Virus record (IMG/VR): IMGVR_UViG_3300038465_000034
Source: an uncultured virus (IMG/VR IMGVR_UViG_3300038465_000034)
Lineage: Duplodnaviria; Heunggongvirae; Uroviricota; Caudoviricetes
Direction: 5' to 3' (one strand)
Length of the DNA: 64,000 bases
How positions within the stretch are numbered: position 1 is the stretch's first letter; every line of letters begins with the position of its first letter. Positions 21,240 through 50,455 of this stretch are shown here, one piece after another. The position numbers and the translations under genes were made by a program. Under the pieces are notes generated by a model. That model saw only the letters and a program-made list of their open reading frames with translations. It did not search any database and was not told where the DNA came from.

Positions 21240-22274
21240 ATGAAAAGGCTATTCTTAGTTCTTCTTCTGGTGGTAATGGCTTCGGCCATGGCGCTCGCAC
21301 AAGTGACCGCTGGCGGAACAAAAATGACCACAGGTTCCAGCAGTACCGTCGCTCCGGCGATAGACATATTGGGTGCTCACAACAACTACGGTCGTGGCTG
21401 CGCTGGTTGCCATGCCCCGCACAGTGGCGCTTATGGCGCAGGCGGCAACGCCGTCACCGGCACCGTCACCGATTCCTACACTGGCACCAATGCACTGTTC
21501 GCGCAGGACATGGGGCCGCTGTGGGGCCAGACGTTTGACTTCAGCGACATTTCCAATACGGGCAGCGCCAACAAGTACCTGTTGACGACTCCTACCAGCG
21601 GCAGCCCAACCTCGTGGACCGCGCAGCAATACAGCGACGTTCGCGGCATCATCATGTGCTTGGCTTGCCATGACGGCGCAGTCGCCAAGGGCGCGATGAT
21701 GCAGAACTGGGCCTTTGAAGAGCAGATCGGCGCATTGCCGACTTCCTATGGATCGGGCAAAATCCCGACCTTGCTGGGCAACGACGGCACTTCCGCTGGA
21801 AACTACAACAACGACCATCCAGTGGGCGAGAGCGCCACTATGTCTGCCGTGTTGGGCAGCTACTATAACAACGCCTCCAACGGTCTGACGTATACGATCA
21901 CCAACAACGCCATTACTTCGTTCGTAGCCGCTGGTCAATATGCACAATTCGTCACTTCCTACGGCACGCCTGCCATCGGCAAGGGCGCACACTCCTACGG
22001 TACTCCAGTCAACGCGAGCGGCGTTCCGTATCTAGTCTGCACAACCTGCCACAACCAGCACGCGATGAATGTGTACGCATCGTCGGCAACCACCCCGATT
22101 GCTAAAAATACGGCGGGTACCTATGCGACGTTCTTCTTCATCAACGGCCCCTACAATGTAAACGACGTTACATTACATCCGACATCGGCTAACAGCACCA
22201 CGCAGTTCTGCCGCCAGTGCCACTTTGGCGAGTCGAACGAAGCCAATGGCGGCACACTGCCAACGGTGTTCTAA
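21240..22274 (+). CDS. Secreted tetraheme c-type cytochrome with OmcE-like architecture
   Basis: Sec signal MKRLFLVLLLVVMASAMALA. Four CxxCH motifs (CAGCH, CLACH, CTTCH, CRQCH) and four candidate distal His (GAH, APH, NDHPV, NQH). Confidence 0.85.
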   Translation: MKRLFLVLLLVVMASAMALAQVTAGGTKMTTGSSSTVAPAIDILGAHNNYGRGCAGCHAPHSGAYGAGGNAVTGTVTDSYTGTNALFAQDMGPLWGQTFDFSDISNTGSANKYLLTTPTSGSPTSWTAQQYSDVRGIIMCLACHDGAVAKGAMMQNWAFEEQIGALPTSYGSGKIPTLLGNDGTSAGNYNNDHPVGESATMSAVLGSYYNNASNGLTYTITNNAITSFVAAGQYAQFVTSYGTPAIGKGAHSYGTPVNASGVPYLVCTTCHNQHAMNVYASSATTPIAKNTAGTYATFFFINGPYNVNDVTLHPTSANSTTQFCRQCHFGESNEANGGTLPTVF

Positions 22275-27020: not shown

Positions 27021-28283
27021 TTAGTCGAGGAAGATCGGCGTTGCCATCGTCTTCGAGTTGAACTTCTTGTTGATGAGGAAGAACGCTTGCGTCGGCTTCT
27101 CGAATGCTGCGCCGATGCTGTTGGCAAAGGCGTTGTATCCGATCAAGCTGCCGTTCGTAACGAACGTTCCGCTATCAATGTACTGGTGGAAGTGACCGAA
27201 CAAGTCGAGATTTGGAGTCCTCGGGTTGTTGATGTTCCAGTTGGCGATCTTCTTGTTGACGGGAATCGTGATACCACCAACACCGCCGCCGTAGCCGATA
27301 GCATGACCGTGGTGAGTACGGAGTTTGAAGGCCCCACCAAACAGATCGTGCGTGCTGTGGTAACCGTCAGCAATGCACCACTCGATGCGGTTGCCGTACT
27401 TCGTGTCGCCGTCGAAGATCATCTTCATTTCGCGGTACATCAATCTTTCCCACGAGTTGGATGGCTCAGTCTTCTGACGCAGTTTCGGTGTGCTGCGACC
27501 GTGGTTACCCGTGTGGCAAGCGACTTTGAGGACCGTCTTCTTGCTGAGGTTGTCGAGGGCGAACTTCATACCGCTGACAAGACGCTCCTGCACCCACCAG
27601 ATCGCATCTCCCGGGCCAAGCTGGTTGCTTTCAGCTACGTCGGGATGGATGGTGTTGGTGATGAAATCACCGAGCAAGGCCAGAAAGACGACGGGAATGT
27701 TGGTGTCCTTCTGCATGATGTCCGTCAGGCGCATCATGTTCTGCCAGTACATCTCGATGCGGTGGTCGGCGGTAGTCAGATCGAAGTAGTTGCGGCCTTC
27801 GACATCGGCGTAATCAACCTTTTCTTCGATGTGCCAATCGCTCGCGGCCCACACAGCAACCGACTCGCTGGTGCCAGTGACGACCTTTGGCAGGATGCTG
27901 AGATGTTGCGACGTGCGAGTGCGAAGGTCCTGCAACACGGACAAGGTTTCCTCGGCCCGTTCCGCACGATGGATAGCCGCCTCATACTTGGCCTTCAGGT
28001 TGTGCTTGCGATCTTTGACTTTCTCGATCTCAAGTTCGACTTGTTTATCGGGCGAGGGCTTTGCAATCTTGGAGACCACCTGCGCTTCGGCCAGAAATGC
28101 TTGAAAGGTCGGCCAGTAGATGTTCCATTTGTCTTTGAACTCACTTTTGTTGCGGAAGAAATCGCGTGTAAGCTCTTCGGTTTGGGTTGCAAGACGCTGG
28201 GCTTCAGCGATGAGGGTTTGCTTTGAAACTTTCTTCGAATCTTTTTTCTTAGCCAAGAATGTTTCCTCCGAGAAGAGACTCAT
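27021..28283 (-). CDS. Calcineurin-like metallophosphoesterase with N-terminal coiled coil
   Basis: SDWH, LLGDFI, GNHGR, HHGH, GHFHQ and NGSLIG motifs. Confidence 0.85.
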   Translation of the reverse strand: MSLFSEETFLAKKKDSKKVSKQTLIAEAQRLATQTEELTRDFFRNKSEFKDKWNIYWPTFQAFLAEAQVVSKIAKPSPDKQVELEIEKVKDRKHNLKAKYEAAIHRAERAEETLSVLQDLRTRTSQHLSILPKVVTGTSESVAVWAASDWHIEEKVDYADVEGRNYFDLTTADHRIEMYWQNMMRLTDIMQKDTNIPVVFLALLGDFITNTIHPDVAESNQLGPGDAIWWVQERLVSGMKFALDNLSKKTVLKVACHTGNHGRSTPKLRQKTEPSNSWERLMYREMKMIFDGDTKYGNRIEWCIADGYHSTHDLFGGAFKLRTHHGHAIGYGGGVGGITIPVNKKIANWNINNPRTPNLDLFGHFHQYIDSGTFVTNGSLIGYNAFANSIGAAFEKPTQAFFLINKKFNSKTMATPIFLD

Positions 28284-28568
28284 CTATGCAACGTATAGTT
28301 GCTAAAATAGAGCGCCAGTGCAGAGCCAGTACGGAGCCACTTGTAAAATGTAGCGCCGAAGTCGATGAGGTAGGCTGGTCTGTTGCGTTTTGAGTGCAGT
28401 CTCCCACAATTTGTTAATACCAAGACTGCGCCACAATTTGTGGGGAAAAAGTTTTCTGACAGCCAACGCTGGAAAACTCAGCCGCTTTCCGTATCTTCTT
28501 ATGAGGGGTGCTGCTGACCGAACACGCTACCCAGAGACCCTCAAAACCGTAGAAAATAGGGTATTTTC

Positions 28569-30056
28569 GTGAAAATCGTCATCGCCGACAAGCTGCCACA
28601 AGAGCATTCCACTGAGTTTCGCGGATTGCCGATAATTATCGAGTGGCCGAAGGGGTCTACACGGGTAGGCAAGAAACCTGACGGTACGTCATTCAAAACA
28701 GAGATGAAAGTCGATTACGGCTACATTCCAGACACGACTGGCAGGGACGGAGAGAAGCTCGACATATATCGGGGTCCTGACGAAGATGCCGAATATGCCT
28801 ACATTGTTGAGCAATTGGACGACAAGGGCGAATTCGACGAATACAAGATCATGTTGGGGTTCAGCACGCTGGAAGAGGCTGAAGAAGCATACGTGGGGCA
28901 AGCAGGCGAGGATATGCTGGGTGACATCTCCGAGGTTGATTTCGAGTACCTGTTTGACACCGTAAGGGAAAAGCAAAAGGAAGCCGCCGCAAAAAAAGAA
29001 GCTAAAATCGCCACTGACGACAAGTACACGGTAATCGAAGCTTTCTTAAAGAACTACAAGCACGAGGTGGATTTCTACAAGGAGACCGCAAGTCTCGTAC
29101 AAGATAGACTCAGTGAGGCTCTTCAAGAAGCGGGAATCAAGGCTGTAGTTAGTTCCCGTGCGAAGTCCCCGGATCGACTGGGAAAGAAGTTGCGGAAACG
29201 AGATGTGAAGAAACACTATCAAACCTTTCGTGAAATCAACGACGATATTGTTGATCTCGCGGGGTGCCGGGTAGCCCTGTATATGCCCGCCGACCGAGGG
29301 GCTGTGGGGCAGATTATTGAGAAACTATTTGTGCCCGTTCGTCCACCAAAAAAATTTCCCGAGTCTAGCAATCCCGAGGATGGTGACACGTTAGGTTACA
29401 CGGCAACTCACTACTTGGTACACTTGCGACCTGAAAATCTCCGCAAGAAGGAGCTTCGGTACGCCGACACACAGATCGAGATTCAAGTGGCGTCGGTATT
29501 GATGGCGGCTTGGGCCGAGGTCACACATGACCTGCTTTACAAGCCCGAGAAGGGTGAATTAACGCCTGAGGAGCACGAATCCCTGAGCAACCTGAATAGG
29601 CTGGTGCAGGAGGGAGAACGAGAGCTTGAAAAGCTTCAGTTCGCCATCGAAGGCCGCACGGATGAGAGCCTTCGGTTTGAAATCGCAGCAGCTTTGGCAA
29701 CGAGTCTCAAGGCCCGGTCGATGGGAAAGACTGCCTCCCTGACCGTAGGCGACATTGAGAAAGCCGTTAAAGCTATTGTTGGGAGCAAGACATCCTTGTG
29801 GTCGATTTATGTGAAAGCCACGGAGACACTTAGGAAAGCTCGTTGGGAAAAGCCCGACGATGAGAAATATCGCAAGGCATGGGAATCCGCTGGATACGCG
29901 AAATCCGATGAACCGCCGACGAGTGAAATGCAATACATTCGTGAGGCAATGGAGAAGCTCGCCCCGGGTAAGCCCGTTAGTACACTGTGGGTTCTGCCGA
30001 ATCGTAATGAGATCATGGCTCTTGCTCAAGAATTAAAGGCGAAGGCGAAGGATTAA
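28569..30056 (+). CDS. Fusion of an inorganic pyrophosphatase-like domain and a RelA/SpoT small alarmone synthetase domain
   Basis: N-terminal IEWPKGSTR..DYGYIPDT.GRDGEKLDIY..FDEYKIMLGF. Central RAKS..DLAGCRV..GYTATHY..EIQVASVLMAAWAEVTHDLLYK. Confidence 0.85.
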   Translation: MKIVIADKLPQEHSTEFRGLPIIIEWPKGSTRVGKKPDGTSFKTEMKVDYGYIPDTTGRDGEKLDIYRGPDEDAEYAYIVEQLDDKGEFDEYKIMLGFSTLEEAEEAYVGQAGEDMLGDISEVDFEYLFDTVREKQKEAAAKKEAKIATDDKYTVIEAFLKNYKHEVDFYKETASLVQDRLSEALQEAGIKAVVSSRAKSPDRLGKKLRKRDVKKHYQTFREINDDIVDLAGCRVALYMPADRGAVGQIIEKLFVPVRPPKKFPESSNPEDGDTLGYTATHYLVHLRPENLRKKELRYADTQIEIQVASVLMAAWAEVTHDLLYKPEKGELTPEEHESLSNLNRLVQEGERELEKLQFAIEGRTDESLRFEIAAALATSLKARSMGKTASLTVGDIEKAVKAIVGSKTSLWSIYVKATETLRKARWEKPDDEKYRKAWESAGYAKSDEPPTSEMQYIREAMEKLAPGKPVSTLWVLPNRNEIMALAQELKAKAKD

Positions 30057-30068
30057 GGAGAGGTTTTC

Positions 30069-30608
30069 ATGGCGCTCGCCCCGTTTAGCCGCATTGTTGT
30101 CGATAGAAAGGAAGAGCAGAAATTCATTCGACGTGCCTTGCGAAGACACCCCCTTGAATACATGGAGGCACTTTGGGGTCAAGTCAGAGGGGATATCCTC
30201 TACATTTGCGCTTTCGTCAAACTAGACCACAAAGCTACCCGCGAGAACCTTAAATACGAAGAAGAAGAGCTTGATGAACACGAAGAGGACGCAGAAGAAA
30301 ATGGGCTGCATCTGATTGGCAGCATTCATTCCCACCCAAACTGCGATGATAATGACACTGGGTTTAGCGAAACAGACCTTTCAACCCTGCAAGAATCGCA
30401 AGAGACTGTTATGGGAATCTGTACTGTCCAAACAGCCGTAATTGATGAGAAAACCAAAGTCAAAACCTCTCTGAATCGTCGAAAGATTCATGTGGCTTAT
30501 TGGCCCTCGGTTAAACCCTTGTTAACGATCCGCCCTGATGCCGCTTCTTTCAAACCAGCCCTCAAAAAGAGCTATAGACTAGCAAAAAAGAGGAAGTCCC
30601 GCCGATAG
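30069..30608 (+). CDS. JAB/MPN (JAMM) metalloprotease
   Basis: N-terminal E (PLEYME) plus GSIHSHP...FSETD (HxH..S..D). AGGAG RBS. Confidence 0.8.
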   Translation: MALAPFSRIVVDRKEEQKFIRRALRRHPLEYMEALWGQVRGDILYICAFVKLDHKATRENLKYEEEELDEHEEDAEENGLHLIGSIHSHPNCDDNDTGFSETDLSTLQESQETVMGICTVQTAVIDEKTKVKTSLNRRKIHVAYWPSVKPLLTIRPDAASFKPALKKSYRLAKKRKSRR

Positions 30609-30636
30609 ACTTTGGTTTCCTATGGTAGGACGCGAA

Positions 30637-33600
30637 ATGAACCCATTGCTTCAAAAAACAGCCGCGACGAAAGTGCCCGAATTCATTTATCACGGCACTA
30701 GTGACCGCTATCTCGCTGAGATTCTGAAAAACGGGCTACGTGATCGCAGTTATTTTACGACCGAGCCTGTGGCTCGTTGGTTTGCGGCAAACGCGGCTCA
30801 GAAGGAATATGGCGGCGGAAACCCGATTATCATTCGGGTGCCAACCAAATCCTTAAAGCTAGACGATTTGGATTGGATAAAAAACTCGCCTGCGATTCCT
30901 CCTTCTCTCTCCAGTGTCAAGGATGTTCGTGTATGGCGGTATTTGCATCCGGTGAAAGTGAGTCTCAAGGACGTAACCAAGGTGGGGGGTTTTAAGACCG
31001 CCGCCGCCGCCGACATCGGCATGATTAAGAACATTATCGCAGGGGCAGACTTCGTGACCGAGAAATCCGATCAAAGCATCATCAGTGATGAACCGACCAA
31101 GGAATTGTTTGTCCTGCTCAACAACTACGTATACGGACGTAGCAAGAAACGTCTGGGTTGGCAGTGGGCACTGAGTCTTAGCCGTCAGGCTATGGCGTAC
31201 CTCGATGGACTTGATTGGGAGGCGGGTGAATTCAAGCTCGTCAAGACGAACGATCACGCATTCACTAAGGGGCGAGGTCGGATTAAACAGTGGGGTGGGT
31301 GGAACCTGTCCCGTAATCCCGAGCAGGAACAGAAGCTTCAAGACCTCTGGGCGAATGCTCCGATGGCGAAGTTCGGCTGCTCTGCCGCTCAAGATGACGC
31401 GGACGCCATCGAGGGAGCGAAGGAAGCCAAGTCAGGCCCACATAAGAACGCAACCACTCAGGTCAACCTCCCGGCCCCCGCCGCCGCACGTATGGCGGAA
31501 GCCGCTGCGCGTTTCCCCGACGAGGAACTAGGAAAAGATGGTCGAGAGGATGATTTTCACGTAACAATCAAGTACGGCGTAGAAGATGATGGTGACTTGC
31601 TGCGTCAGGTAGTCAGTGAGCAGAAGCCGTTTTCGGTCATACTGGGCAAAACGCTTGTATTCTCTGTGAGCGAGAGCTTCGGGAAGCAAGCCCCCGTCGT
31701 GGTTGAAGCTTATGCTCCTGAACTTGAAGCTCTTCACAATGCGGTCAATGAGGCGATGGGCACTCGTGAGGATGATTTTCCTGACTATAAACCCCACGCC
31801 ACTCTCGCCTATGTCAAACCTGAATTTGCCGCTAAGTACGAGGGACTGGATTGGCTTGATGGGGTTGCGTTTCCAGTAACCAGCATCACGCTTTCAACCA
31901 AGGGCGACAAGCGTATTAACGTACCGTTCGGTCAGAAAACTGCATCCCACAAAACCCCGCCGATGAGCGACACGCAGTACGAGAACCCCGAGATGGGCGA
32001 AGAGACGAATGCTTACGCGGACATCCCCGAGCGTGTGAAAGGTGTCGAAGACCTGCCCGCACTTGAAGACCTTTCGCCCGCCCTGTTTAAGACGGGGGCT
32101 CAGAACTTCAAACCCGTACCGTTCGACAACTGGTGTGATGCGAACCCGATGTACCAGCCTGACGATTTCAACGAGGCTGAGTACCGCTACGACGAGAACA
32201 TCGCCCACTTCAGCACGGTGACGTTCCCCATGACGGTCTACCGTGCGGTTCAAGTCGAGAAGGGTACGGAACCGAACTTGGAAAAAGCGGGCGTCTACTG
32301 GACGTGGGTTGAGAATAGTGCCGATGCGTACTTTGGTTCGGGGTCAATGTGGGATCAGGGTGGTCCGCATCCGAAGAACCCCGAAACGGTAATCATAAAG
32401 GCTAAGGTATTGCGCCCAACCGACGTGGATTGGGACGCAACCCTCCTTGCAAACATGCTCAACGAGGAAGAGAACGAGATCACAGTTAGACAGGGTGCCG
32501 AGCTTCAATTAGTGGGCGTCAATCACGGAGATGCGTACAAGAAGCCTTCGTACAAGAAGACCCAAAAAACAGTCGTGGCTTACGGTGACGACTCCAAGAA
32601 TCTACCCATGCGTGGTCAGAAGGGTATCGGCGGGCAGGATTTCCCCGTGATGACGGAGCCGCCGCTGTTCTCGGATGAGAAGACAGCGGGCAAACTAAAA
32701 TACCTGTACCATGCCACTAAGCCACGCCTTGTAGATGAGATTCTCAAAAATGGGTTAAAGACCCAGTACAGTGAAGAGCATCAAGAATGGGGAGAGTCGG
32801 TTTACCTCACCGATGATCCGCAATGGGCGATGCAATACGGGGGAGCACTTCTCCGCGTGGATGTTTCGAAGCTCAACAAGGAGTTGTTGAGGCCCGACGA
32901 TTTTGAATTCCGCGACATGTGGGAAGAAATCCCGGAGGAAGTTCGTGAGAATTACAACAATTGGGCGCACGCTTCGTGGCAGATGAGTTTGGAGTACGTG
33001 CGTCAGTGTGCCTACCTGCAAGACATACCAGCCAATGCGATTAAACTCGTCCCACCACCCGAGTCGTCAAACCCTATGTCACGTGAGCAACAGCAAAAAG
33101 AATTCCTCGACGCTCGCACCGTAGAGGAAGTTGCCGAGCATTTTGCCATCACGCCAGAGGCCGCCGCGAAAGCTAAGGCTGAGGGCGTAGTTAAGGCATC
33201 GGCAATGAAGACTGCCGACGCGGAATCCTATTTCACGGGCTTGGACGAAGCGGCCCACTCTATCATCACCGAATTCGAACAACACATCAAGGACCCCAAG
33301 TACCGCCAGAAGTGGGAAGTCGTTCCCGCCGCCCGTTTGAAGAAGATTTGGAATGACTACGCCAAGACGGGCATGGTGCGTGACGAGAAGGGTATGGGCG
33401 ACATCGCATGGACGGTGCAGTACAACATTTGGAAGATTCACGCCAACACGATTCTCTGTGGGCATTCGGAGCAGAGCCCCATACAGTTCGCCGAGAATGT
33501 CATGGGAGAAAACCTCGAAGAAAAATATGGTCGAGATGTCTTTCAAGACGACAACTCTTTCTTTGACGACGACAAGGGAGCGTGGCGGCTCTCCGACTAC

Positions 33601-36600
33601 GCACTTGACCCGCTGATTAACGCGGCGGCGAAGCTGGAAAACGCTAAGACAGCAGAACAGCAACTTCAAGCCGTAGATTTCATCCTGAACATCGTCCATG
33701 CCCGCAGTGATCTTGCAAGCTGGTTTGTACAGGGCGGCACCGCCACACTGAATTCGCTCGCTGGGTACAAGAAGGCCAGCGGGTCAACCCAGATGTTGCC
33801 CGACGAGGTAGAGATGGTTGCGGACGTTGCCCACGGCACAGGCGGAAAGTCGTTCCCGAAATTGGAGAAAGAACCGCTGTTCCCCGAGGACAAGGAAGAG
33901 AAGAAAGTAGGGGCAGCTAAGACGGCGGCGGGTCTCCCGTCGTTCAATGCGTGGGTGAAGAAGTCTGGCGGCATCTGGAAGGTCCTCGACCAGTACGATG
34001 TCGATACAGCGGAGACCTATGGCTATGGGCTGGAAGAACCTGATGACACCCCCGCCGCCAAAAAACGTTACGAGAAAGAACTAGGCAAACGAGCTTTGGC
34101 GGACTTCCAAGAACGGTACGAGAACCTGATCGCGGAGTATCAAAGCTGGCAGTTCCCGATGGATGTGTTCCGATGTATTTCTTTACCTTCAGGCGAGAAT
34201 GCACAACAGCAACACCTGTTCCCTGACACCCCACAAGCGAAGCTCCAGCAAGGGTTGCAGGCGATAAAATACCAAGGTGTGGGCATTTATTGGTCATGGG
34301 ATGAGAACTCCGCAGAGTGTCACTGGGGTTCTGGTGGGCCGAACGTGACGCTGCACGGCATAATCAACAAAAACAACGTTGATTGGGAAGGCACGCTTTA
34401 CGCCAACATGTTTCCCGCACTGGGCGACGACGAAAAAGAAGTCCGTCTGATAGAGGGCACACAGTTTGAGCTTGAGGGAATCCAGTACGACGAGAAGTCG
34501 GGATGGTCGCAGCCCCCAGTAAAGACGGTCACGGCGGCGAAAGCTAAGAAGCGTGTATTCTACCATGCGACGAGTGCTGCCAACATCAATGGTATCGCAC
34601 AGCATGGGTTGAAACCTTCGGAGAAGACTAACTGGGGCGGCATGTTGGGGGATAGCTCTCTTGGTAAGACATTCTTCGCAAATACCCCCGCCTCGGCGAT
34701 GTACTACGCCATGATTATCTTCCGCGACAAACTGGAGGATAACGGTCAAGCGCATGTCCCGATCTGTCTCCGCGTCACCATACCGGAGAAGATTCAGTTG
34801 GATACGGAGCGGGCTCAGAACGTGCAGAGAGGTGTCCATCTACCGGAGAGTGAAGCCTATGCTCCCGATGAAGAATCATGGGTGACGGAGGGCATCCCAC
34901 CTGCGAACATTCAGATGTTCTGGCAGGGTAAGTGGCAGCCGATCAAGGCGGGAGACTGGGAGGAGATGTTCTATTACGAAGAAGGAGAGGGCGTCGGGTA
35001 CGTGGACTGGGAAGGTTCCCCTGTCGGTGATTCGGTCCCCGAAGCTATGGCTGACGCTGAGAGCTTCACGATGCCCAAGAAGGCAGGCGTGATGGGTCAG
35101 GTTTATCTCCTGCACTTCGACATTGATCCGAAGGAAGAGGTTCCCAGCACCCGCGAGGATGCCAAGAAACCGTTCCACGCCCGCCACTACATGGGCTGGG
35201 CTGAGAATGCACAGGAGCGCATTGACCAGCATTACAAGGCGACATCTGGCGTCAAGTTGATCGAAGCTATCCACGCGAAGGGTATCTCGTTCACCGTCGC
35301 CCGTATCTGGGATGATGTGGATCGAGACTTCGAGCGTCGGATGAAGAATCAGGGCGGGTTGAACCGCCACTGCCCGATCTGCAAGAAGCTGGGGCTCATC
35401 CCCGCGTCTCGCTATCGGGGTAAGGCATTGGAGAAGCAAGTGGCACCAGAGACACCAGAAGCAGGACCAGATTTCGTGGAGATCGAGAAAAAGGCCGCAG
35501 CGGGCGATCTCGCCAACCTGCGGAGCTACCTCACGCTGAGCAAACGTGAGATGGGCGAGGAGTTGGCGCGTTCATTCAGCGGCTATTGGCAGGAGTTCGT
35601 GGAGAACGAGCACCCCGAGTTCGCCGATAAGATCGACGAAGACGGCTACACAGAGGATTTCGATGCTGTCCCCGAGAACGTGTTCGGTGACTTCCTCGAT
35701 GAATACAGCAGTCGAGCAATGCAGGATGACCCCGCCATGGCTCCCACGTTCCTGACCGTGGACTATCGCCGTGATGTCAAGAACGCTTGGCTCGTGCATT
35801 TCTCCGACTACCCCGAGGCAATCGCCAAGGAGGGCTTTAGGTATGGTATGGATCGAGTGGAAACGCTCGCCCTGACGACTTACTTCAAAGAGGATGCAAA
35901 GAAGTTCGGTGGGTACAACTTCGCCCTCGATGCTCATCATCGCAACCTTGAGGGTCTTGGGAAGAACTACGGCAAGCATTGCGTGCTCTTCCAAGCAAAC
36001 GGCATTGAGACGTGGCATACGGGTGATGATTTTGAACAGATCATTTTCTGGGGCAAGGACGCCAAAAACATCATTCCGATCATGCATTGGAACGACGAGA
36101 TGTGGCACGCTGGGGAAGACGCAGACGGCAACTCATTGTTCAGTGCCTACCAGTTGTCGGAAGTTGTGGAGTGGGCAATTGCGAACGCGGCGAAGCTGCT
36201 ACCTAAAAAAGTTCGAAAGCCAAAGGCTAGTTCTGAGATGACGACGCTGTACCATCGTACTCGCCCGGGACGCGAGGAACAGATCAACGCACAGGGATTG
36301 AGTCATATCGAAGGCGGCGGTGAACTTTGGTTTACCGATGATCCGTCTGCTTATTATGGGGACTCGCCGAACGCGGTGTACAGCGTGGACGTTCCCAAAG
36401 AAGAAGCCGAGGCCGCACACGTGGGTGGACACGACTATCGCTTTATGGGACGTTCGTTCGGACCCGACCAGATCAAGAAGGTCGCTGCGGAGCCATGGGA
36501 AATGCGGCAGGACGAATACGCGGGTCGATGGAATGAACAAGAGACGGAGGAACAAAGCGGCGTGCGTCATCAGAAGAACCAAGACTGGGAGCAGAATTCC

Positions 36601-39600
36601 CTAGCCGCCTTGTCGCTCGGCAAGATCACGCCAGAACAGGCGAAGGAACGCGGTGTGTACGAGGCAAAGTCGTTCATACCACTTCCCACGACTCCGCTGT
36701 ACCACGTTACAACCGCCAAGAGTCAAGTCGAATCAAACGGGCTCAAGACTCGCCGCGAACTTGGTCAAAACTACGGCAAGGGGTTGGGCGGCGGCACCAG
36801 TATGAGCATCAGCTTCACGGATGACATGAGTATCGCCCAAGGCATTTACGACAATCTGCTGATTGCTCGTAAGGTTGCCGCAGGCGAGATGACCTTGGAT
36901 GATCTGATTAGCACCGCAACGAAGGGTATGGGTGCGAACCGTCCATGGATCGACGATATCCTCAAGTCGCTGGGCGGCTCCAACCCGAAGGACAAGATCA
37001 ACGTGGAACTGGACGCCATCCAACGTGGTGTGGCGTTCGAACACGGATTGGGTCGTCCGCCAGATGACGAAGCCATTCTGCCGCAGTATCGTAAGCCCGG
37101 GCCGTGGCGTCCTACTCCTTGGAGCCAACACTGGAAGGGCGGCGATGGGGAAGAAAAATACACCTATTGGGAACGGGACCTGACGGCAGAAGAAAAGCAG
37201 GAGCGTGTTTTCGAGTTCTTCAAGAAGTGGAGTTTCTGGCGTGAGCAAGCAGGCGGCGGACTCGATCCGCTTTATTTCATGAGTGATCCGAAGGCTTTGG
37301 GTCAGACACCAGAGAGCGAGATCGCCATCCTGACATTCAAGGCAGTGCCCGGGGCTATGGGCACCCGTGAATCGGCGTTGGGCGAATGGCGTGTGTACAC
37401 TGGTGCGGCTGTGCAGCTTACGGGTAACGCTGCGGCGGCAAAGATGGGAATGTTTAATCCCAACCGAGCCAACGTACAGTACAAGTCTGAGCAGGGTGTA
37501 GGTGAGTGGCAGGGCTGGAACATTGATTTCAGTGCCGATCCAGTCAAGGAGCACATGCTGCCCGCATCGTTCGTTCGGAAATTGAAGGGAATCGAGCAGA
37601 AGTTCATCAACGTCGCCGATGTGGTGGAAACGCAGGGCGAGCAATGGACAACTGACAGACGTGTGGATGAGATTCACACGCAGATGGAAGCGGAGAAGTG
37701 GTTCGAAGCCATCCTCGTAGATGAGTACGAAGACCAGCCGGGGAAATACTACTTGGAAGAGGGGCATCACCGCACCCGTGCGGCTAAGAAGATGGGCAAA
37801 ACGACTATTCCAGCCGTGATTATGAAGTTGGAACCCCGTAAACCCCACTGGTCGTTATCGTCAGGTATCGTCAGAAAATCGTCAGATATCGCCAAGTTTG
37901 CGTTCCTCATCGAAGTCCCGAAAGACTCTCGTGGTCACTTCTGGGATGAGCCGCCAGCCCACAATTTGGAATTCTGGGCGTTCCGCAGCCGTCCGCCTGT
38001 CCTGATGAACGAGAAGGTGTACTTCACTTTCGACAGGATGCCAGTCGCGGAGACCACCGTCCTCAAGGTTGAGAAACCCGGCGAGTCGTTGTGCGAACTG
38101 AGCGGCAAATACGAGGATCACTGGAAGCTCTATTGGGAGCCGAAGCAGTTTGTCAAGTATGCAGGCACCACAGCGCCTACGCTGTACCATGGCACCTGCC
38201 CCGAGAACGCTGAAGCCATCATGAAGAACGGCTGGGAGCCGAATCAAGTCTCATCGGGCGGGAACGCTGGACAGCCGCAGTACCTCTATCTCACGAACTT
38301 CCCTGAGAATGCTCAGTGGTTCGCCAATGAGAAGGGGTGCGACACCATCCTTGAGGTCCGTAACATCCCGATGTCGTATCTCGAAGTTGATCCTGAGGAC
38401 GGCACTGAGGACACCGTTGAGAGAGAATTGAACTTTAGCGAGAAGGCATTCCCCGGCACGGTTGTACTGACAAAGCCACTACCTGCGGACCACTTCAAGG
38501 TGTTCAAGAGTAAGATCGGCAGCCTGAATGAGAAGCGGAATGAAAAGTGGATTTACCACCCTGACTATGGCGCGTTCTCGCAGAAGGGAAGCATAGGCCC
38601 TCATGCAACACTGATAGCGAGAACTATGGGTGAGGGCATGTCCTCTGGGCGGAAGTACGAAGAGGTACTACGGGGCTACGCGGTGATCGACGTGGATCAG
38701 AAAACCGTGACCTTGGCAACCCCCACAAACGAGTTGATACCTAACGACGTGGTAGACCTGTTCAAAAAGACATATCCCCACTACGCCCTATCGATCCCAG
38801 CGGAGTCGAAAGCAATCGGTGTGACCGCCGCCATGCCGAAGAAGTGGTATCACGGCACGTCCACGAAAAATGCCGAGATTATCATGGGGGATGGTTACCT
38901 ACGCCCAGATCAGGAGACCACCTACGACATCGACATCCCGCGTGACGGGGCGGTATACATCGCAGAGTTCGACGTAGCAAACCAGTACGCTATCGAGCGC
39001 GGCGGACCCGTGCTTGAGGTAGCCGCTCCTGACATCAGTAAGCTCCTGCCCGATGAGGACGATGTTTACGAACTCCTCAATGACCGTGGTGGTGAGTTGA
39101 ACGTCAAGGGTTCCGCCCAAGCCAAGCGAGTTAAGGCTTTGTGGCTCAAGCAATGGAATGACGAGAATGCTTCCTACAATGAGCCCGAGAAGTTCCCGAT
39201 CTATAAAAACTTCGAGGAAGCGTGGAAAGCATGGGGCGAGATCGAGTTCGAGGGCTCGGCAGAGCTTGCGGAGCAGATGAAGTATCTGACCGACTACATC
39301 GTCAAGAATGACCCCAAGCTCGCTCGTGCAATCATCGAACTCAGTGGCAAGGCCGCTCACATGGGACCGCTCAAGGTCGTGCGTCAAGTCAAGACCGCCG
39401 CCCCGAAGTCCATCTGGTATCACGGCACCAGCATTAAGAACCTGCGAAGCATCATGAGTCAGGGATTAGTTCCTGAAGGTACGGAAAAGGTTTGGGCAGA
39501 CGATCCTGATGCTGGGATATCCGCACCCAGCCGTCAATCTTACGGCGGCATTTATGTGTCACAGAACCTCATGACGGCTGCGGGAGCCCCCGATACCGAG

Positions 39601-42600
39601 GATAGAAAGGCTCGCGGCGGCTCGCTCGTGGTTATTATGGAGCTTCAGCCGAACACCATGTACCTTGACGAGGACAACGTTACAGGGGTTCTCGGTGCTC
39701 CAATCAAGCACATGAGCGATAACACCTTCCACGTTCTCTGCTACTACTTGGCAGCTACACAGGAAGGCGCAACCCAAGACTGGCAGGATGAGATCAGGGT
39801 GATGCGGGAAGATTACGTCCGCAAGTGTTTCACGCAATGGGAAGCCAAGTTCGCTGAACGTAAGATGCCATTCCATCCCGAACTGAAGGCTGAGCTTGAG
39901 AAGCTCCTACCCAGCGTGTGGCTAGGTGCCGTCACCCGTGCGGCGGGTCACGTCAAGGACAACTACTCCTACATTCGAGCATGGGATCAAGTCTTCTACG
40001 GCACCCCTAAGGAGAAACAACGCCCCGACATGAACACCATACTCCCCGATGCGTCCGAGGGAGAGGCGGCGTTCCGCGAAGCGGCAGAGAAGGTCACCCG
40101 TACATTGCGGCTCCTAGCCCGTCCGAACACTGAAGGAAGCCAGACATACAACATTAACACCTCCCGCATCAATGAGCCGATTGGCTTCAGCGGGTCAAAC
40201 CACATTCTCGCTCTCGTAGAAGTTCGGGACCTTGAAGTGCGGGCAACCCCATCGCCAGTTCGAATGCTTCTACACTGGGGCACCATCCCGCCAGACTTCT
40301 TCACCCAGTGGAATATAAAGTTTGGCAGCAAGTACGAAGTAGTGGACGCCCGCAAGGGTCAGCCCAAGGCTAAGGGCGTGGCGGCATCGGCTCACGAAGA
40401 CGATCCTCAGGTCTTCTACCACGGAACCTCGTGGCAGGCCGCTCAACTGATCGACAAGGAAGGTTTGAAGGCGAGCGACAACCGTCTGACAGGCGGCAAG
40501 AAATACATCTGGTGCGCCATCGCGGAGTTCGCGGCGAAGGAATACGGTGCGAGTGTGACGGACAGCGACCAGTACGCCGTGATCGAGTTCATCTGGGATT
40601 ACGGCAAGAGCGAGCCTGACCCGGAGCATTTCGAGGAAGGCGACATGTACCGCCGCATTGAGGGCGATATCCCACGGTCGGCGATTACCAAGATCAGCTA
40701 TTTCGACGACGGGCAGATTGTCAAGACGGCTGCGGTAGAGGACGAAATCAAGATCATTACGGCTCCAGACGGTCGAATTACGGCCAAGCATGTCGATGGA
40801 AAAGCTTCAGGCACCATGGAAGACCGCGAGGGACTGGCTAAGTGGTTTGAATGTAATACTTTACCGCAAGAAGGGGCTCAGCAGTACGACAAAGCCTTCG
40901 TTTTGGGCACCGTAACAGTCAAGGTCACCTCACGCCGTACAGGGCTCGGCAGGGCGCTTGTAGGCGCTGTGCTCGACGCAGCGAAGACTCAGGGTGCCAA
41001 AGTGTGCTTCCTGCTCGCTCAATCGCTCACGGGGCTCTCAGCGAAGGAATTGAGCGCCTTCTACAGCAATCTCGGGTTCCAGCCCTACGTAATCGACCCA
41101 CCGCCTCGTTGGTTCGATTCCAGCACCGCAGGCATCTTCATGAAGAAGCTGGCAGGCGTGGCAAAGTTCGCCGCCATGAATCACATTAGCCAGCAGGACG
41201 CCGTAGACCGCAAGATGTTTGGACCCGTCTACCACGGCACCACCGAGGAGAAGCAGGAGAGTATCGGGAACGAGGGTTTCAAAGTTTACATCGGGGATGC
41301 GGGCTCGGGCGACGTAGCCCACGGTTACGAAGGCAACCAGCCATATCATGACGGCATCCCCGCTCCCGTGCACCACCTCGGATTCGGGATTTATTTAAGC
41401 ACGAATAAGACCATCGCGAAGCAGTTCGCGGGCGGTACAACGCGAGGCATGAAGAGTTACTACCTCGACGTGCCGCGCCTTGAGACCATCAACTTCGGAG
41501 TACCGAAGACGATGATGAAATGGTGGATCAGTCAGGGTTACAACGGAAAGCTTGCCAAAAAGGATCGTGTGGAAGCAACCAAACAGATGACCGAGCACCT
41601 CAAGGCTCAGTTCGACGCCGTGTGGTTCAAGGGCAAGGGCATGTACAAGCTGCTCGATGGCGATCAGATTTGTGTGTTCGATTCGAGTCGCATCTATGAA
41701 GTCGATGCAGCTATGTCGAAGTCGGGTGACATCGGCTCCAAGGTCATTCGTAAGGCCGATGGGATGAAGGGCGTCATCAAGAACGTTCGCAGCATCCCGC
41801 CAGACGTTGCACAGCAATACCACGGCGGGGCGGACAAGTTCTACGAGATCAAGTGGACAAAGGGCGGCACCGACCACAACGTCTACGCCCGCGACATTGA
41901 ATTTGTTGGGGCACCCAAAGCTCAAGGTGCGACCGCCTCCAAGACAGCATCGTTCTTCTGCGTTGCCTGCGATGGTGGGGATTGCATTGAGCACGAGAGC
42001 CTGACCGCTGCCGTCAAAAACAACATCAACAAGCTCACCTTTGGGCCTGAGGAAAATAACGATGAGTACGGCGGTTGGACGATCAATGCATGGGCACCTG
42101 ATCGGATGCCGCGCCCCCGCGCTCAATACGAGGGTCCCGTAGGCTTCATCAATATTGGAATCGAGGGAGCGAGCATCGAAGGTCCGTATGTCTACGACAT
42201 CAACGTTGAAGATGATTGGCGAGGTACGGGTCTGGGTCAGCAGCTTTATGACTTGGCTGTCGCGGAAGCAAAGAAGCGCGGGTACACTGAATTCAATTCA
42301 AGCACAGACCAGACTCCCGAAGCGAAGGCAGCGTGGAAACGTCTATCGCAGCGGTATCTGGTGACCCGCAAACAAGATAAGACCGAGAACCTACCCTACT
42401 TCAGCATGAAATTGGCTGAGGGGTTTAACGATGAAGGTTTCTGGGCAGGCGAAGGCAATGCCGCATCTGGCGTGCTTCCGATCTGTACCACCACGCAGCG
42501 TATTTGTCTCGCATGGCGATCACCTGATGTCCACATCGGCGACTGCTGGGGCACCATAGGCGGGGCGTGTAAGCCGAAGATGAGTCTCGCGGAAAGTGCC

Positions 42601-45600
42601 AAAGCTGAACTGACGGAAGAGACGGGCTTCAATGGTGGTATCACCATGCACCCAGCTTACGTATTCTCAAGCGGTAGTTTCTCCTACCACAACTTCCTCG
42701 GCACCGTAGGCACGGAGTTCCGATTCGCTCCGCAGAGCGAGCATCATTGGGAGACCACGGGGCTTGAATGGTTCACGTGGGATGAAATTCAACAGATGGT
42801 AAAGGAAGACTCCAGCGATTTTCACCCCGGACTCATCAGTTTGTTCAAGAGCGATGGCAAGAAGATAGAGCAACTCCTCGGCAAGCCCAAGACGGCATCC
42901 GAGAAGTGGTATCGCAACCTTCCGTCTCCAACGGAATGTCTCGATTGTTCCGCCGCCGATGTGATACGGCATCAGGAAGAACGAAATGATATGGATTACG
43001 GCTTTGACCCAGAGTTCATGAAAGAGATGGAATCGGTACCCGCGAGAGCTTTAGTGTGGGTGACTAAAACTCCCGAGGCAGCAGCGCAGTACGGGGAAGA
43101 CGATATCCATGAAGTTCAAATTGGCGACCCCGAAATTCTCGTCAATGATGGAGAGGACGGGTATCTCGTTCTTGATCGTTCGAAGATAGCGGCGGGCGAC
43201 GACGGAGATATGCCGAACCCGCTCCAAGTTTTCCCCGAACGTCCCGACGTGATGGAGACTTTCCGCCACATGCGTCCGTTTGAACGTGATCGTTTGATTG
43301 AGGAAGCTTCACTTGAGATGGTCAATCCAGCCGACCTGAAGACCAACCAGAAGACAGTGACCAAAAAGACCGTCCAGTGGTTCATGGACAACCCCGAGGA
43401 GATCAGGAAGCCACGGAGCAACGTCGGGCTAAGCGACACCGAGCAATTGTACCCGCTTGTCTGTAAGACCAGTGATGGGTTGTGGCTCTATGATGGCAAC
43501 CACCGTTCCGCTGCCGCCCTCAAGTTAGGTATGGAGATCGAGGCGAAGATTGTAGACCTGACGGACTATGAGGAACCGCAAGAGCATACAGCATCGGACT
43601 CGTGGAAGGACGAGGGTTTGCTCAACGAAAGTGATATGAAGAAGTGGAAGCGATATTGGGATGGTCGTGGGCATAGCACTCAGATCGACAAAGCCGAGGA
43701 TGGGTTGTACCACTGTTGGATCAAGTTTGCCACCACACCAGCTAGGGCATTGAGGCTCTACCACGTTACGACAGTGCCTATCGCCAAGGACATCAAAGCC
43801 CATGGCTTCAAGTCCATCGATCAGGGTGTGTGGCAAGACTATTACGCTCCGCAAGGTCGTGACGGCATCTACTTCTACGATGACCTGAAGTATTCCGATG
43901 CCTACGCCGCCCACGCCGAGGGCAAGCTATGGATGAAGAACTTGGAAACCGAATCGTGGGACAAGGCTAAGGCCAATAAACCTCAGATGGCGATCATTGA
44001 GGCGCAGGTGCCAGAGAACATCGTCGTTACCACGGATGAGAAGGAAGATGGCTTCTTTGTACCCACTGCTGACCTGAACAAGATCAAGATCACGGGCATG
44101 TACAAGTTCGATTATGTTCCGACCGAGGGACGGCAGCCGCGTGAGAAGTTCGGGGCTACATTACAGCCGACATCCATTGATGCCCTGTCGAAGGACACGC
44201 AAGCTGATATCGCATTTATGCTCGCCGAGGAGAACGAATTCTTGTTGCGGGCAGGGTACGATGAGTCGGATGTCAAGAGCAACCTCATTGGAATGGTTGA
44301 CGAACCCAAAGTCCTGCTGGGCAAGATGCCTGTCGAGCAGCTTTACAAAACATTTAACCGCAAGGTGAATAAGGTTGACACGGCAGTCGCCAAGTACGTT
44401 GAGATGCTGAAAGACCCACAGTTTGAATTCGATCCGATCCTCGTGGTGGATGGAAAATTCTACGAAGGCGGGCATCGCATGGAAGCCTACCACAGGGCGG
44501 AGCGAACTATGATCCCCGTCGTGGATGTTACGAACCTTGTAAAGGCACCGCCTGAGAACTGGGAAGCGTGGATGAATGGAGAGGATGTCACCGCCGATCA
44601 GATGTTCCCCATACGGAAGCAAGCGGCAGCTTTCCCGACCTTCGAGCAGGTGATGGATGAGATTACCTTGGCCGACGACGAGTTCATGTTCGGCACCGAC
44701 GAGGAAAGCAAAAGATGGTATGACCAAGCGTTGGCATTCTGGAAGTCCCAGTCCTTCCCGCTGACAATCTATCGGGGCTTGGCAGTATTCGATGAGAGGC
44801 ACGAGATCAATTACAACACGTTTGGTTGGTCGTGGTCTTTGGATAAGGGATTCGCTCAGCGTTTCGCTGAGGACAAGTACATCGATTACCCCGACAAACA
44901 CCGCATCGAAGTTTATGAAGGCAAGATCACCGCGAATGCCGTAGACTGGCTCAACACCTTCAGGGCTTGGGTTACTATTCCCGAGGAGAAAGAAGTTCGG
45001 CTTAAGGCGGGTGCGAAAGTTCAAATCCCAGCGTTGAGTCGCACGGTCACCGCTGCCGATGACATGAAGCCTCGTAGCAAGTACGACAAGGTGTGCCACA
45101 CCATTGCCACGGATGACGCGCTGTACAGCTACTTCGCTGACTATGTGCAATGCGCGGATGCCTTTGAAGATAACCCAGCGGCTTCGGGTAGGGTGGTCGA
45201 GCTTGTTAAATCACTCACGCCGTTTGTGCCGCCGACTACTAGGAAGTGCCTCTATCGTGGGGAAGAGATTCGCATGGGTGATGACCGTCTCCCCGCCGAA
45301 TGGGAGCCGCATCTTCGGGACTTGCTGTCTTGGTCGGTAAATTACGACACCGCCAGAGGGTTTGCTGGACATCGAGGCATCGTGTGGAAGACCGTAGGCA
45401 AGATTCAAGGGATTGCTCTTGAGGATATTGTTAGATGGCGTAACTGGACACATCCCAATGAGAGCAACTATCCGGGTATGCAGTCCGAATGGTTTGTGAT
45501 GAACACCTGCAACGCGAAGGAAGCCGATTGGCAGAAGACTGGCGCTGTATGGAGTCAAAGCAAGAAACGGTACAAGCTTTACCATGGTGGGGACACTGAT

Positions 45601-46825: not shown

Positions 46826-47131
46826 ATGGACTTCAAAAAATTTCTTCCCAAACTTCAACCGTGGCTGGATAGGCTCCAGAACTATTTTCACATTCCCATC
46901 GCCTGTGCGTTCCAAGCGGCGATTCTCGGATGGCACTGGCACACGGGGAAGGATTTGGGTCCGAATGTTCAGGGCACGGTGTTTAGTTTCTACGCTCTTT
47001 TGGGCGGACACTTCGTAGGTAGTCAAGTCTGGCCTGACAAAACACTCCCGCCAACGGTAAACGTGGACGTGAACAACAGCAATGTGAACACGGCACAGGC
47101 TACCGTTGCTCCCGATCCGTCGAAGGGTTAA
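46826..47131 (+). CDS. Small two-TM membrane protein (holin-like, tentative)
   Basis: Two hydrophobic segments and a GAGGG RBS. Isolated + gene. Confidence 0.55.
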   Translation: MDFKKFLPKLQPWLDRLQNYFHIPIACAFQAAILGWHWHTGKDLGPNVQGTVFSFYALLGGHFVGSQVWPDKTLPPTVNVDVNNSNVNTAQATVAPDPSKG

Positions 47132-48315
47132 GACCCCGACGCGCCCCCGAAGGGTTTCTTCGTGATTGGAACGATTGGCCTCACATTGATGGGGTCTTCA
47201 CGTCGTTTTACTCCGTAGCGTTCGACCAAATCGGTGTGCTGCTGAAATCCATTCAGGATCGGCTCCGCATTGCCAGACGGCTCCTTGCAAAACGTAATGG
47301 ATTCCTCCGCATCGATGTCCACACGAACGAAGTCGCCCAGCTTGACCTGACCCGTGGCGACTAGGTTCGCCATTGGGAATACCAAATTGGTTTCGATAGC
47401 ACGTTTCAAATGACGTGCTCCGTACTTCGGGTCCGTACCTTCTTTGAGCAGTCGCGCCTTCACCGCAGGTGTGCAGTTGAATACGAACTGGTTCGCACCC
47501 GCAGCCATCAGGATGCGCTGTTGCACCATGCCAAGCTCGATCTCAAGAATCTGCTCTAAATGTTCGGGGCGAAGGGTCTTGAATACGACCGACTTGTCGA
47601 TGCGGTTCATGAACTCAGGCGTGAATTTGCGACGGGCAGCATCCACCGCGCTGCGGTCAATTTTTGCATCCAGCGAATCATCAACGACAATTTGATCCTT
47701 GGAGATACCAAAGCCCATGCCGCCATTCATCAGTTCGTTCATGTCGGCGGCACCGAGGTTCGATGTCATGATGATGATGCAGCTACTCAAGTCCACGCGG
47801 CGGTTGTCGCCGAGAGTGAGATTGGCTTTATCGAGGATGCCAAGCAGTAATTGCCAGAGCGAGTCGGATGCCTTTTCGATCTCGTCGAACAACAGTATCG
47901 AGAGCTTCAGTTTCTCGGTGTGATACTGGTTGAGAGCTTCCTGTGTGAGCAAAGGATGAGTTTCGCGGTGACCGAGGTAGCCCGGGGGCGAGCCGATCAA
48001 CTTCGCAATCTCGTGCGAGTGCTGGAACTCGGCGCAATCGATCTTGATGCACGCCCGCGCATCGCCAAAGAGGGATTCGGCCATGGCTTCGACCACGCGG
48101 GTTTTGCCGCTGCCTGTGGGACCGAGGAAGAGAAGGTTGCCGACTGGACGACCCGGAGCATTCATGCCCGCCAAGAACATCTGGTAAATCTCGGCGACTT
48201 TCTCGACGGCGGCGTCTTGTCCCACAATTTTACGACGCAGGGCCTTCTCGAAATCACACGCATCGTTCGAGCGTTTGCTGGGGTCTAATTTGAGTCCCGT
48301 GCCAGTACCTTTCAT
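47128..48315 (-). CDS. ClpA/B-family ATPase with only the second AAA+ module (D2 plus D2-small)
   Basis: IVGQDAAV, FLGPTGSGKT, KLIGSPPGYLG, LLFDEIEKA, IMTSNLG, FTPEFMNRID and YGARHLKRAI. AGGAG RBS before ATG 48315. Confidence 0.9.
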   Translation of the reverse strand: MKGTGTGLKLDPSKRSNDACDFEKALRRKIVGQDAAVEKVAEIYQMFLAGMNAPGRPVGNLLFLGPTGSGKTRVVEAMAESLFGDARACIKIDCAEFQHSHEIAKLIGSPPGYLGHRETHPLLTQEALNQYHTEKLKLSILLFDEIEKASDSLWQLLLGILDKANLTLGDNRRVDLSSCIIIMTSNLGAADMNELMNGGMGFGISKDQIVVDDSLDAKIDRSAVDAARRKFTPEFMNRIDKSVVFKTLRPEHLEQILEIELGMVQQRILMAAGANQFVFNCTPAVKARLLKEGTDPKYGARHLKRAIETNLVFPMANLVATGQVKLGDFVRVDIDAEESITFCKEPSGNAEPILNGFQQHTDLVERYGVKRREDPINVRPIVPITKKPFGGASGS

Positions 48316-48427
48316 GCTCACTCCTGTTCCGTATCCGAGTCCCACAAGTCCGCCTTCCTAAGATTCGAGAAGTGGCTTTCCGCTCTGACAGGTGCCGACC
48401 TCCCTAAAACCTCACCAATACTGCAAA

Positions 48428-49748: not shown

Positions 49749-50435
49749 TTAGGAATTTGTGGGTTTGGAATCAACAACTTGAAGTGCGGCAAGCTCCCGC
49801 CGCATGTTTTCTTGAGCCAAGAGGGTATAGGTTCCCGCGAACTGTGGACTGAAGTAAAGCTGCGGTCTGGCGAGGAATTTCTTCAGGAATGCCGAGCGGC
49901 CCATCTTCCACATCTCGTCGGAGGCGAAGTTGTACTCCATGCGGATGAGACGACAGTTTTCGTCATACTGTTCTGGTGCCGCTCCCAGCCCCGCGAGATC
50001 GATATCGGTCACAATATTGGTGTGTTCGGTGTGAGTGGTGCTGAGGATGAGGCCGACGATCTTGTCGGCATCTTCTATGTCGAATCCTAGTGTGGGATTG
50101 TCTTTCTCAAAGACCATTGCGCTGCGGACCTCGTTATCGTCGCGGGTGGGCTCATAGATTGCGTCATGGTAAGCCCACGCGAAGAAAATAGTGGGGTCCA
50201 TTTTGTCGAAAAACTTGAAGTATTCACTGAAGCCGAACTGGATGTGCCCTAGTGTGTGGTAATGGCGATGGGGCTCAAGATAGCGGTGCTTCAGATCGTC
50301 CGCCACACGCCCGATCCTGAGATCGGTGGGACAGCATCTCCCCGCACGAGGGGCCGTTCGAACGAAGTCATTGAACTTCAGGATGGGGGACGGTTTGTAT
50401 TCCTCGTAAGGAGGGGCAGAACGAAAAACATCCAT
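49749..50435 (-). CDS. HD-superfamily phosphohydrolase (COG4339-like)
   Basis: YLEPHRHYHTLGHI..YHDAIYEP..NEVRSA..DIDLAGLG..IRMEY. Confidence 0.85.
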   Translation of the reverse strand: MDVFRSAPPYEEYKPSPILKFNDFVRTAPRAGRCCPTDLRIGRVADDLKHRYLEPHRHYHTLGHIQFGFSEYFKFFDKMDPTIFFAWAYHDAIYEPTRDDNEVRSAMVFEKDNPTLGFDIEDADKIVGLILSTTHTEHTNIVTDIDLAGLGAAPEQYDENCRLIRMEYNFASDEMWKMGRSAFLKKFLARPQLYFSPQFAGTYTLLAQENMRRELAALQVVDSKPTNS

Positions 50436-50455
50436 ACCACTATAATACCACGTTT

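Follow-up and report, generated by a model that had tools for sequence, protein, structure and literature searches.

Closest described systems

Peptidases of the JAB/JAMM fold are part of several bacterial defences: Cap3 of type II CBASS, BilC of Bil and BubC of Bub. Overexpression of Cap3 blocks CBASS, and the enzyme is reported to be highly substrate- and sequence-specific (bioRxiv 2022.03.31.486616), and for BubCD a JAB able to cut a linear pre-protein has been described (PMC11601596). Since the JABs of bacterial Ubl-like systems reverse the respective defence, and an excess of Cap3 shuts off CBASS, a phage-borne JAB would be an obvious counter-weapon.

On the phage side, polyvalent proteins (Iyer et al. 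2017, PMC5512222) are predicted virion cargo, and the JAB described with them is RadC, located inside proteins of mobile elements and prophages. Patchily distributed peptidases of jumbo phages, SprT-like ones included, have been proposed to target host proteins (Iyer et al., PMC7824862). In the prohead processing of SPN3US, phiKZ and T4, one short motif recurs across the protease, portal, scaffold-like and internal head proteins; in SPN3US the proteins reported to bear it are the protease, the portal, the capsid and the ejection proteins (PMC10052503).

The DNA analyzed here, 64,000 nucleotides of the uncultured virus record IMGVR_UViG_3300038465_000034 (hereafter the window), touches on all of these systems. 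Its JAB shares the JAMM fold and the catalytic set with Cap3, BilC and BubC. Unlike them, it is phage-encoded, has no adjoining CD-NTase, Ubl, E1 or E2 gene, and is exchangeable with non-JAB peptidases. It is a single free-standing domain, as are archaeal JAMM1 (P. furiosus, 5LD9) and bacterial 2KKS, from which it differs by a longer spacing from the second His to the Asp (13 rather than 10 residues), by a basic C-terminal tail and by having no sulfur-carrier neighbours. The adjoining genes have InPase, RelA/SpoT, ART-PolyVal, 2H, ParB and GNAT modules in common with the published polyvalent proteins. The locus is set apart from those proteins (as described in PMC5512222) by a recurring linker that joins the modules and by a JAB that is a classical JAMM encoded by a separate gene. 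Compared with SPN3US, phiKZ and T4 (PMC10052503), the motif is K-x-A-[ASG] instead of A-x-E, the protease family (phrog_18299) is different, and cleavage is predicted from sequence. Polyvalent cargo and protease-processed head proteins are thus already known, the latter with a different motif; the new point is a slot shared by JAB, SprT-like and HslV-family peptidases. No description of a phage JAB beside polyvalent genes, or of its exchange with SprT and HslV, was found in the openly available main texts searched.

The phage and its host

The window phage is a Tunturi_5-like Acidobacteriota jumbo phage. Among 50,697 records, the only cultured phage with a match to the JAB is Tunturiibacter phage Tunturi_5, a 309-kb myovirus of Acidobacteriota (PMC11924767; no virion proteomics for Tunturi phages was found in the available text of that source). 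In Tunturi_5 (PP885688), gp270-273 bring together a JAB (40% identity), an InPase gene, a polyvalent gene and a divergent phosphoesterase, as in the window; there, however, the JAB gene precedes the InPase gene instead of lying between it and the polyvalent gene, the latter encodes 1489 aa, and the JAB is labelled ‘minor tail protein’ in GenBank. As the cultured match is Tunturi_5 and all seven matches in the GTDB genome set fall in Acidobacteriota bins, the host probably belongs to Terriglobia. One of these bins (L321) carries a JAB match followed by short polyprotein-like pieces and, by eye, a relaxase-like gene, and a near-identical 149-aa JAB stands alone in differing chromosomal contexts in several Terriglobia bins (L322-L327).

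Organization of the locus

The initial annotation had described a tight run of three genes, and all three open reading frames lie on the + strand at the positions it gave. The first (28569..30056) encodes a 495-aa fusion of InPase (PF18823, aa 13-127, 112.7 bits) and RelA/SpoT synthetase (PF04607, aa 196-327, 42.5 bits), i.e. a small polyvalent protein. After 12 nt it is followed by the gene of the 179-aa JAB/JAMM Zn-peptidase (30069..30608), and this in turn by a giant polyvalent gene (30622..46374; 5250 aa from the first ATG), which begins 13 nt downstream if translated from that ATG and 28 nt downstream if, as is likelier, it starts at 30637. Pfam matches in the giant protein comprise PARP-like, 2H, ParB, ART-PolyVal, GNAT and Nudix modules, so that several unrelated enzymatic domains (all of these except ParB) are present in one chain, as in polyvalent proteins; its other modules have no assignment. 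The 2H phosphoesterase module (aa 287-426; 31480-31900, + strand) gave a sub-cut-off match to the anti-CBASS protein Acb1 (E 1e-5, 25.8 of 27 bits). No sigma-70 promoter was found across 28200-31000.

From the likelier start, the giant protein opens with a short leader of the M-N-P-L-L-Q type (30637..30666, +) that closes with the first K-T-A-A and may serve as a head-targeting signal. Leader-like starts are found in 3 of 567 ORFs of the complete relative G005 and in 3 of 177 ORFs of relative G002, all of them motif-bearing, and the pattern also matched three unrelated ORFs.

Upstream, on the - strand, lies a divergent gene for a 420-aa calcineurin-like metallophosphoesterase-type protein (27021..28283; phrog_284, E 4.5e-36), a constant marker of the locus with a homologue upstream in most relatives; longer proteins at the equivalent position in relatives match Metallophos_2 below the cut-off. 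In two distant phages (L028 and L085) a homologue of this gene adjoins a JAB homologue, with neither InPase nor polyprotein present.

Several further genes of the window deserve mention. A stand-alone ClpB D2-type AAA ATPase (47128-48345, -), also present in G005 and G026, lies just beyond the polyprotein. Ahead of a terminase-like gene are two motif-bearing genes (18-2210 and 2185-5376, +), which are probably further head cargo, as their G005 homologues are among the most motif-enriched ORFs of that phage. The 344-aa product of 21240-22274 (+) looks, by eye, like a multiheme cytochrome c, with four C-x-x-C-H motifs behind a signal-like N-terminus; it had no BLAST match in G005. The products of 54896-55381, 49749-50480 and 55965-57158 (all -) we take, by eye, to be SET-like, HD-like and HNH plus RNA-ligase-like, respectively.

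Identity of the JAB protein

The assignment of the 179-aa protein as a JAB, made earlier from the sequence, is borne out by a Prok-JAB match of 40.7 bits (Pfam cut-off 25), by its conserved residues and by structural comparison. The predicted general base Glu30 (30156..30158, +), a role known from JAMM enzymes, as well as His87, His89 and Asp103, are invariant in 150 of 150 homologues, and Ser100 is a serine in 140 of them; the Zn-binding motif H87-x-H89 ... S100-x-x-D103 lies at 30327..30377 (+). In canonical JAMM enzymes the second histidine is separated from the aspartate by 10 residues. The 13 residues of the window protein lie within the range of its 150-member family (10-21), in which 35 members have the canonical spacing.

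An AlphaFold model built from the alignment of the 150 homologues (pLDDT 93) matched P. furiosus JAMM1 best (5LD9, Z 15.1, rmsd 1.8, 117 aligned residues), and further JAMM matches were BRCC36, 2KKS, Cap3 (9ILD, Z 12.9, rmsd 2.4, 122 aligned) and a bacterial Ubl deubiquitinase (8TYY, Z 12.3, rmsd 2.8, 128 aligned), the identity to the last two being 16-18%. The fold is nearer to PfJAMM1, BRCC36, Cap3 and the Ubl deubiquitinase than to RadC (Z 8.3, rmsd 3.5, 110 aligned), and the RadC Pfam profile gave no match at E 0.1. The best PDB sequence matches are the uncharacterised bacterial JABs 2KKS (E 1.5e-11) and 2KCQ; PADLOC JAB models match weakly (E 0.002-0.008), and PHROGs gave no match. The protein is therefore, by sequence and model, a classical free-standing JAMM peptidase whose catalytic site is intact and whose activity is predicted.

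Tail-assembly JABs of the lambda gpK type are fused to NlpC/P60 and lie within the tail-tip gene cluster. Such a role was rejected for the window protein, which is a single domain with no NlpC/P60 match and no adjoining tail genes. A function as an antitoxin of RelA was likewise dropped, because JAB also follows InPase genes that lack RelA.

Linkers and the head-maturation protease

The JAB gene had been said to lie between two linker-bearing genes, and for the giant gene this is clearly so: its product contains 22 K-x-A-[ASG] motifs where 7.8 are expected, and 14 K-[TVI]-A-[ASG] motifs where 1.3 are expected, neither count being exceeded in any of 1000 shuffles. For the InPase-RelA protein the count is not significant (2 versus 1.0 expected, p 0.27), and it qualifies as linker-bearing only because each motif stands where domains meet and GNAT or ART modules are found inserted at the first one in relatives. 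This first motif, K-x-A-A, separates InPase from RelA (aa 137-140; 28977..28988, +), and the second, K-T-A-S, precedes the C-terminal module (aa 387-390; 29727..29738, +). In two relatives (L001 and L010) a GNAT is inserted at the site of aa 137-140, and in a third (L296) ART and GNAT stand between the InPase and RelA domains. Alignment of the window polyprotein with 27 related ones gave 40 breakpoints, of which 15 lay within 15 residues of a motif (4.4 expected). K-x-A-[ASG] linkers are thus module borders at which modules are swapped.

The question of which enzyme would cut these linkers leads outside the window. The head module of G005 comprises a head-maturation protease (phrog_18299, E 2e-15), a capsid protein, a portal and, judging from its location, a scaffold-like gene. 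Among 47 distinct full-length proteases obtained from 80 loci, the motif occurs in the N-terminal 60 aa of all 47 and in the C-terminal 55 aa of 41, compared with 4 in the core. It is common to the protease, the scaffold (335 motifs versus 123.5 expected) and the portal; the tail sheath is mildly enriched (24 versus 13.8), the decoration protein has 4 versus 6.0 and the putative tube protein 0 versus 5.6. The most motif-enriched ORFs of G005 and Tunturi_5 are mostly head or cargo proteins, and beyond the top 22 the counts equal expectation. The motif is also present in 36 of 36 N-termini of the major capsid protein; we did not accept it as a cut site there, as the segment is homologous, by eye, to the start of the phage G capsid, which is devoid of the motif.

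As the motif flanks the protease itself and fills the scaffold, the head protease is the likely cutter, and it is very probable, on this sequence pattern, that a conserved head-maturation protease encoded outside the window cuts the K-x-A-[ASG] linkers. Its assignment comes from PHROGs and GenBank annotation (best Pfam E 0.056, no PDB match), and the Tunturi_5 protease is 59% identical to that of G005. Both JAB and protease are encoded by G001 and G002, whose JABs are 60% identical to the one studied here, and from these relatives we infer that the window phage possesses such a protease of its own. Related proteases and similar motifs also exist in Catera and phage G, neither of which has a JAB; their motif evidence is weak, since the protein sets were picked after the motifs had been seen and the phage G control set is enriched too (7 versus 2.1). 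In phage G, gp19 has been named head maturation protease (PMC12484599); the available text of PMC12484599, PMC7150772 and PMC12363180 contains neither cleavage sites nor JAB data.

The alternative put forward in the initial annotation, that JAB itself matures the polyprotein at K-x-A-A, has in its favour the tight and conserved adjacency of the genes and the precedent of BubCD given above. It now appears highly improbable. Three of the four complete IMG/VR relatives are JAB-less and nevertheless linker-rich, linker density is alike with and without JAB, and the motif flanks the head protease. Pfam found no Ubl-type domain in the polyprotein, whereas the JABs described in the papers cited cleave where a folded partner ends. 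Among the findings that would speak against its proposal, the same annotation had named processing by a prohead protease outside the window; the motif pattern accords with this part, as it flanks the phage's own head-maturation protease encoded there.

Distribution of JAB in related phages

JAB was detected in 5 of 25 related records and in one of the four rated complete. In the other three (G010, G011 and G014; CheckV 100%) it is absent by both the family profile and Pfam, and all three have retained the InPase gene and the protease, as well as polyproteins that contain 5-10 motifs apiece. The density of K-[TVI]-A-[ASG] is 1.54 per 1000 aa in six JAB genomes and 1.74 in six SprT genomes. JAB is thus dispensable for having linker-rich cargo.

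Where JAB is present, its surroundings are stable. Among the 23 listed loci with a JAB identity of at least 50%, all of at least 3 kb and many of them near-duplicates, the InPase gene lies directly upstream in 23, and a polyprotein match lies downstream in 18, the remaining five ending at contig edges. The synteny of JAB with its neighbours is thus conserved, as the initial annotation had expected, and three of the four complete relatives keep linker-rich polyproteins without JAB. Distant JAB homologues occur in very varied contexts, and some are solitary genes of bacterial chromosomes or of other phages; no E1, E2 or Ubl was found in the 147 neighbours scanned (those of up to 900 aa, out of 151) at 46 such loci.

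An exchangeable slot behind the InPase gene

For a census of the position occupied by JAB, loci were collected by InPase, independently of JAB. Of 45 loci, 22 had the clade layout and were reduced to 18 distinct ones; the other 23 represent different contexts and were outside the census. The 18 slots hold JAB (6), a SprT-like HExxH zincin (8), an HslV-family peptidase (1; phrog_1040, E 6e-29), an unidentified protein of 92-96 aa (2) or nothing (1). A recognisable peptidase is hence present in 15 of 18 slots and missing from 3. PF10263 was above cut-off in five of six scanned slot zincins, and one more empty slot, that of G014, was found apart from the census. JAB is thus exchanged with unrelated peptidase classes at one slot.

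The exchange is best seen in G026, which has the InPase-RelA nearest to that of the window (85% identity). DNA identity stops at the InPase-RelA stop codon, the slot of G026 is filled by a 132-aa HExxH SprT gene, and the linker pattern is the same despite the different peptidase. SprT genes of the G026 type were found in 4 of 18 related records searched, none of these four bearing JAB. On a tree of 27 InPases (137 columns; 15 JAB rows, which include loci found via JAB; 8 of 24 inner branches open), the distribution of JAB needs seven changes, and at least four gains or losses are forced by well-supported branches; values as low were obtained in 55 of 500 shuffles, so that the clustering of JAB does not reach significance. 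Exclusivity of the peptidases holds for the slot gene only, as SprT-like matches were found in 17 of 17 records, mostly within polyproteins, and HslV-family genes lie outside the slot in two of the 17 (Tunturi_5 and G236).

The small slot protein (L290:8865-9143 and L295:2328-2618) carries a W-x-D-A motif and has no assignment in Pfam, PHROGs or the Atlas. The InPase gene itself is also variable: in L295 (1046-2281) InPase is fused to a Pol-beta-type nucleotidyltransferase in place of RelA, and in G014 (C1:69976-71100) a RelA-like domain seems to be inserted within the InPase domain, splitting it.

Possible role of the slot peptidase

As close relatives keep the polyprotein and swap in unrelated peptidases at the slot, the giant protein next to JAB is probably not its substrate. 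We propose that the products of the InPase-RelA and giant genes would be head cargo, their linkers being cut by the head-maturation protease encoded elsewhere, and that JAB is a separate, presumably active JAMM Zn-peptidase whose gene occupies an accessory position of the cargo operon open to exchange. The JAB protein has neither a K-x-A-[ASG] motif nor an M-N-P-L-L-type leader and is therefore probably not packaged; its place of action would be the infected cell, at the time of cargo-gene expression, presumably late, judging from the position in the operon. Its most likely task there would be to clip host-made covalent tags or conjugates of the Ubl, CD-NTase or peptide type off phage or host proteins and so serve as a counter-defence. 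This agrees with the second proposal of the initial annotation, the removal of defence tags conjugated by the host, and is the best single reading. We give a probability of about 0.5 to the reading that JAB is a dispensable slot peptidase, probably unpackaged, that would act on protein tags or conjugates made by the host.

The gene content of phage and host bears on this reading in both directions. Neither ThiF nor ThiS had a match in the five JAB-bearing records (two of them complete), and any Ubl-type substrate would consequently be that of the host, since these phages have no E1 or ThiS-type tag. The operon partners of the known defence JABs are likewise missing: instead of the CD-NTase and Cap2 E1-E2 that accompany Cap3, the neighbours are InPase-RelA and the polyprotein, and the Ubl, E2 and E1 of BilC and BubC operons were found neither in these phages, as judged by ThiF and ThiS, nor beside the distant homologues. 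In the host class, Bub-type and CBASS-II gene sets were seen when 19 proteins from 9 of the loci with Multi_ubiq or Prok-E2_B were scanned. Against the host-tag reading, conjugation genes are rare among the 201 genomes of the class of G030 (Multi_ubiq in 17, Prok-E2_B in 3), and 3 of 18 slots hold no recognisable peptidase. Moreover, because Cap3 is so substrate-specific, a single phage JAB may be unable to deal with the variety of host tags.

A second possibility is that the slot peptidase acts on the phage’s own cargo at sites other than the linkers, either trimming it before packaging or, in the producing cell, destroying toxic modules (ART, RelA or GNAT) that were left unpackaged. The slot stays attached to the cargo genes and is filled by a peptidase at 15 of 18 loci, and zincin domains have been proposed to process polyvalent proteins (PMC5512222). 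However, the neighbours stay constant across the peptidase classes, as in the window and G026, and a protein that stays constant while one class of peptidase replaces another is unlikely to be a specific substrate; in addition, JAB also follows InPase genes without RelA, and its distant homologues occur by themselves, in bacterial chromosomes as well as in other phages. We consider this explanation unlikely.

The slot could also be a mere insertion hot spot behind a strong promoter, with occupants that share no function and a JAB that is an unrelated accessory, active for instance in Mec-type hydrolysis on sulfur carriers. The small proteins or empty positions at 3 of 18 loci, the uncharacterised bacterial JABs among the best PDB sequence matches and the very varied contexts of JAB homologues are in keeping with such a view. 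Three unrelated peptidase classes at one position would seem hard to obtain by random insertion, and the JAB-bearing records searched contain no ThiS or ThiF. We regard the hot spot as a tentative option, somewhat on the doubtful side.

Returning to the host-directed reading, the swappable slot hints at an exchangeable anti-host enzyme. Enzymes of the SprT/Wss1 and HslV/proteasome types remove or degrade adducts. A bolder form of the proposal, in which JAB, SprT-like and HslV-family enzymes are interchangeable in a dedicated counter-defence slot, each stripping or destroying host Ubl or CD-NTase conjugates on assembling virions, seems to us rather doubtful. No report of a phage-encoded deconjugase of Bil, Bub or CBASS-II was found in the literature searched. 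If the proposal is true, the JAB of the window would be a phage-encoded deconjugase against one of these systems. The three unrelated peptidase classes at a single position provide both a short list of candidates and natural controls. The K-x-A-[ASG] rule also predicts head processing in phage G, in cluster C mycobacteriophages and in phages like Tunturi_5.
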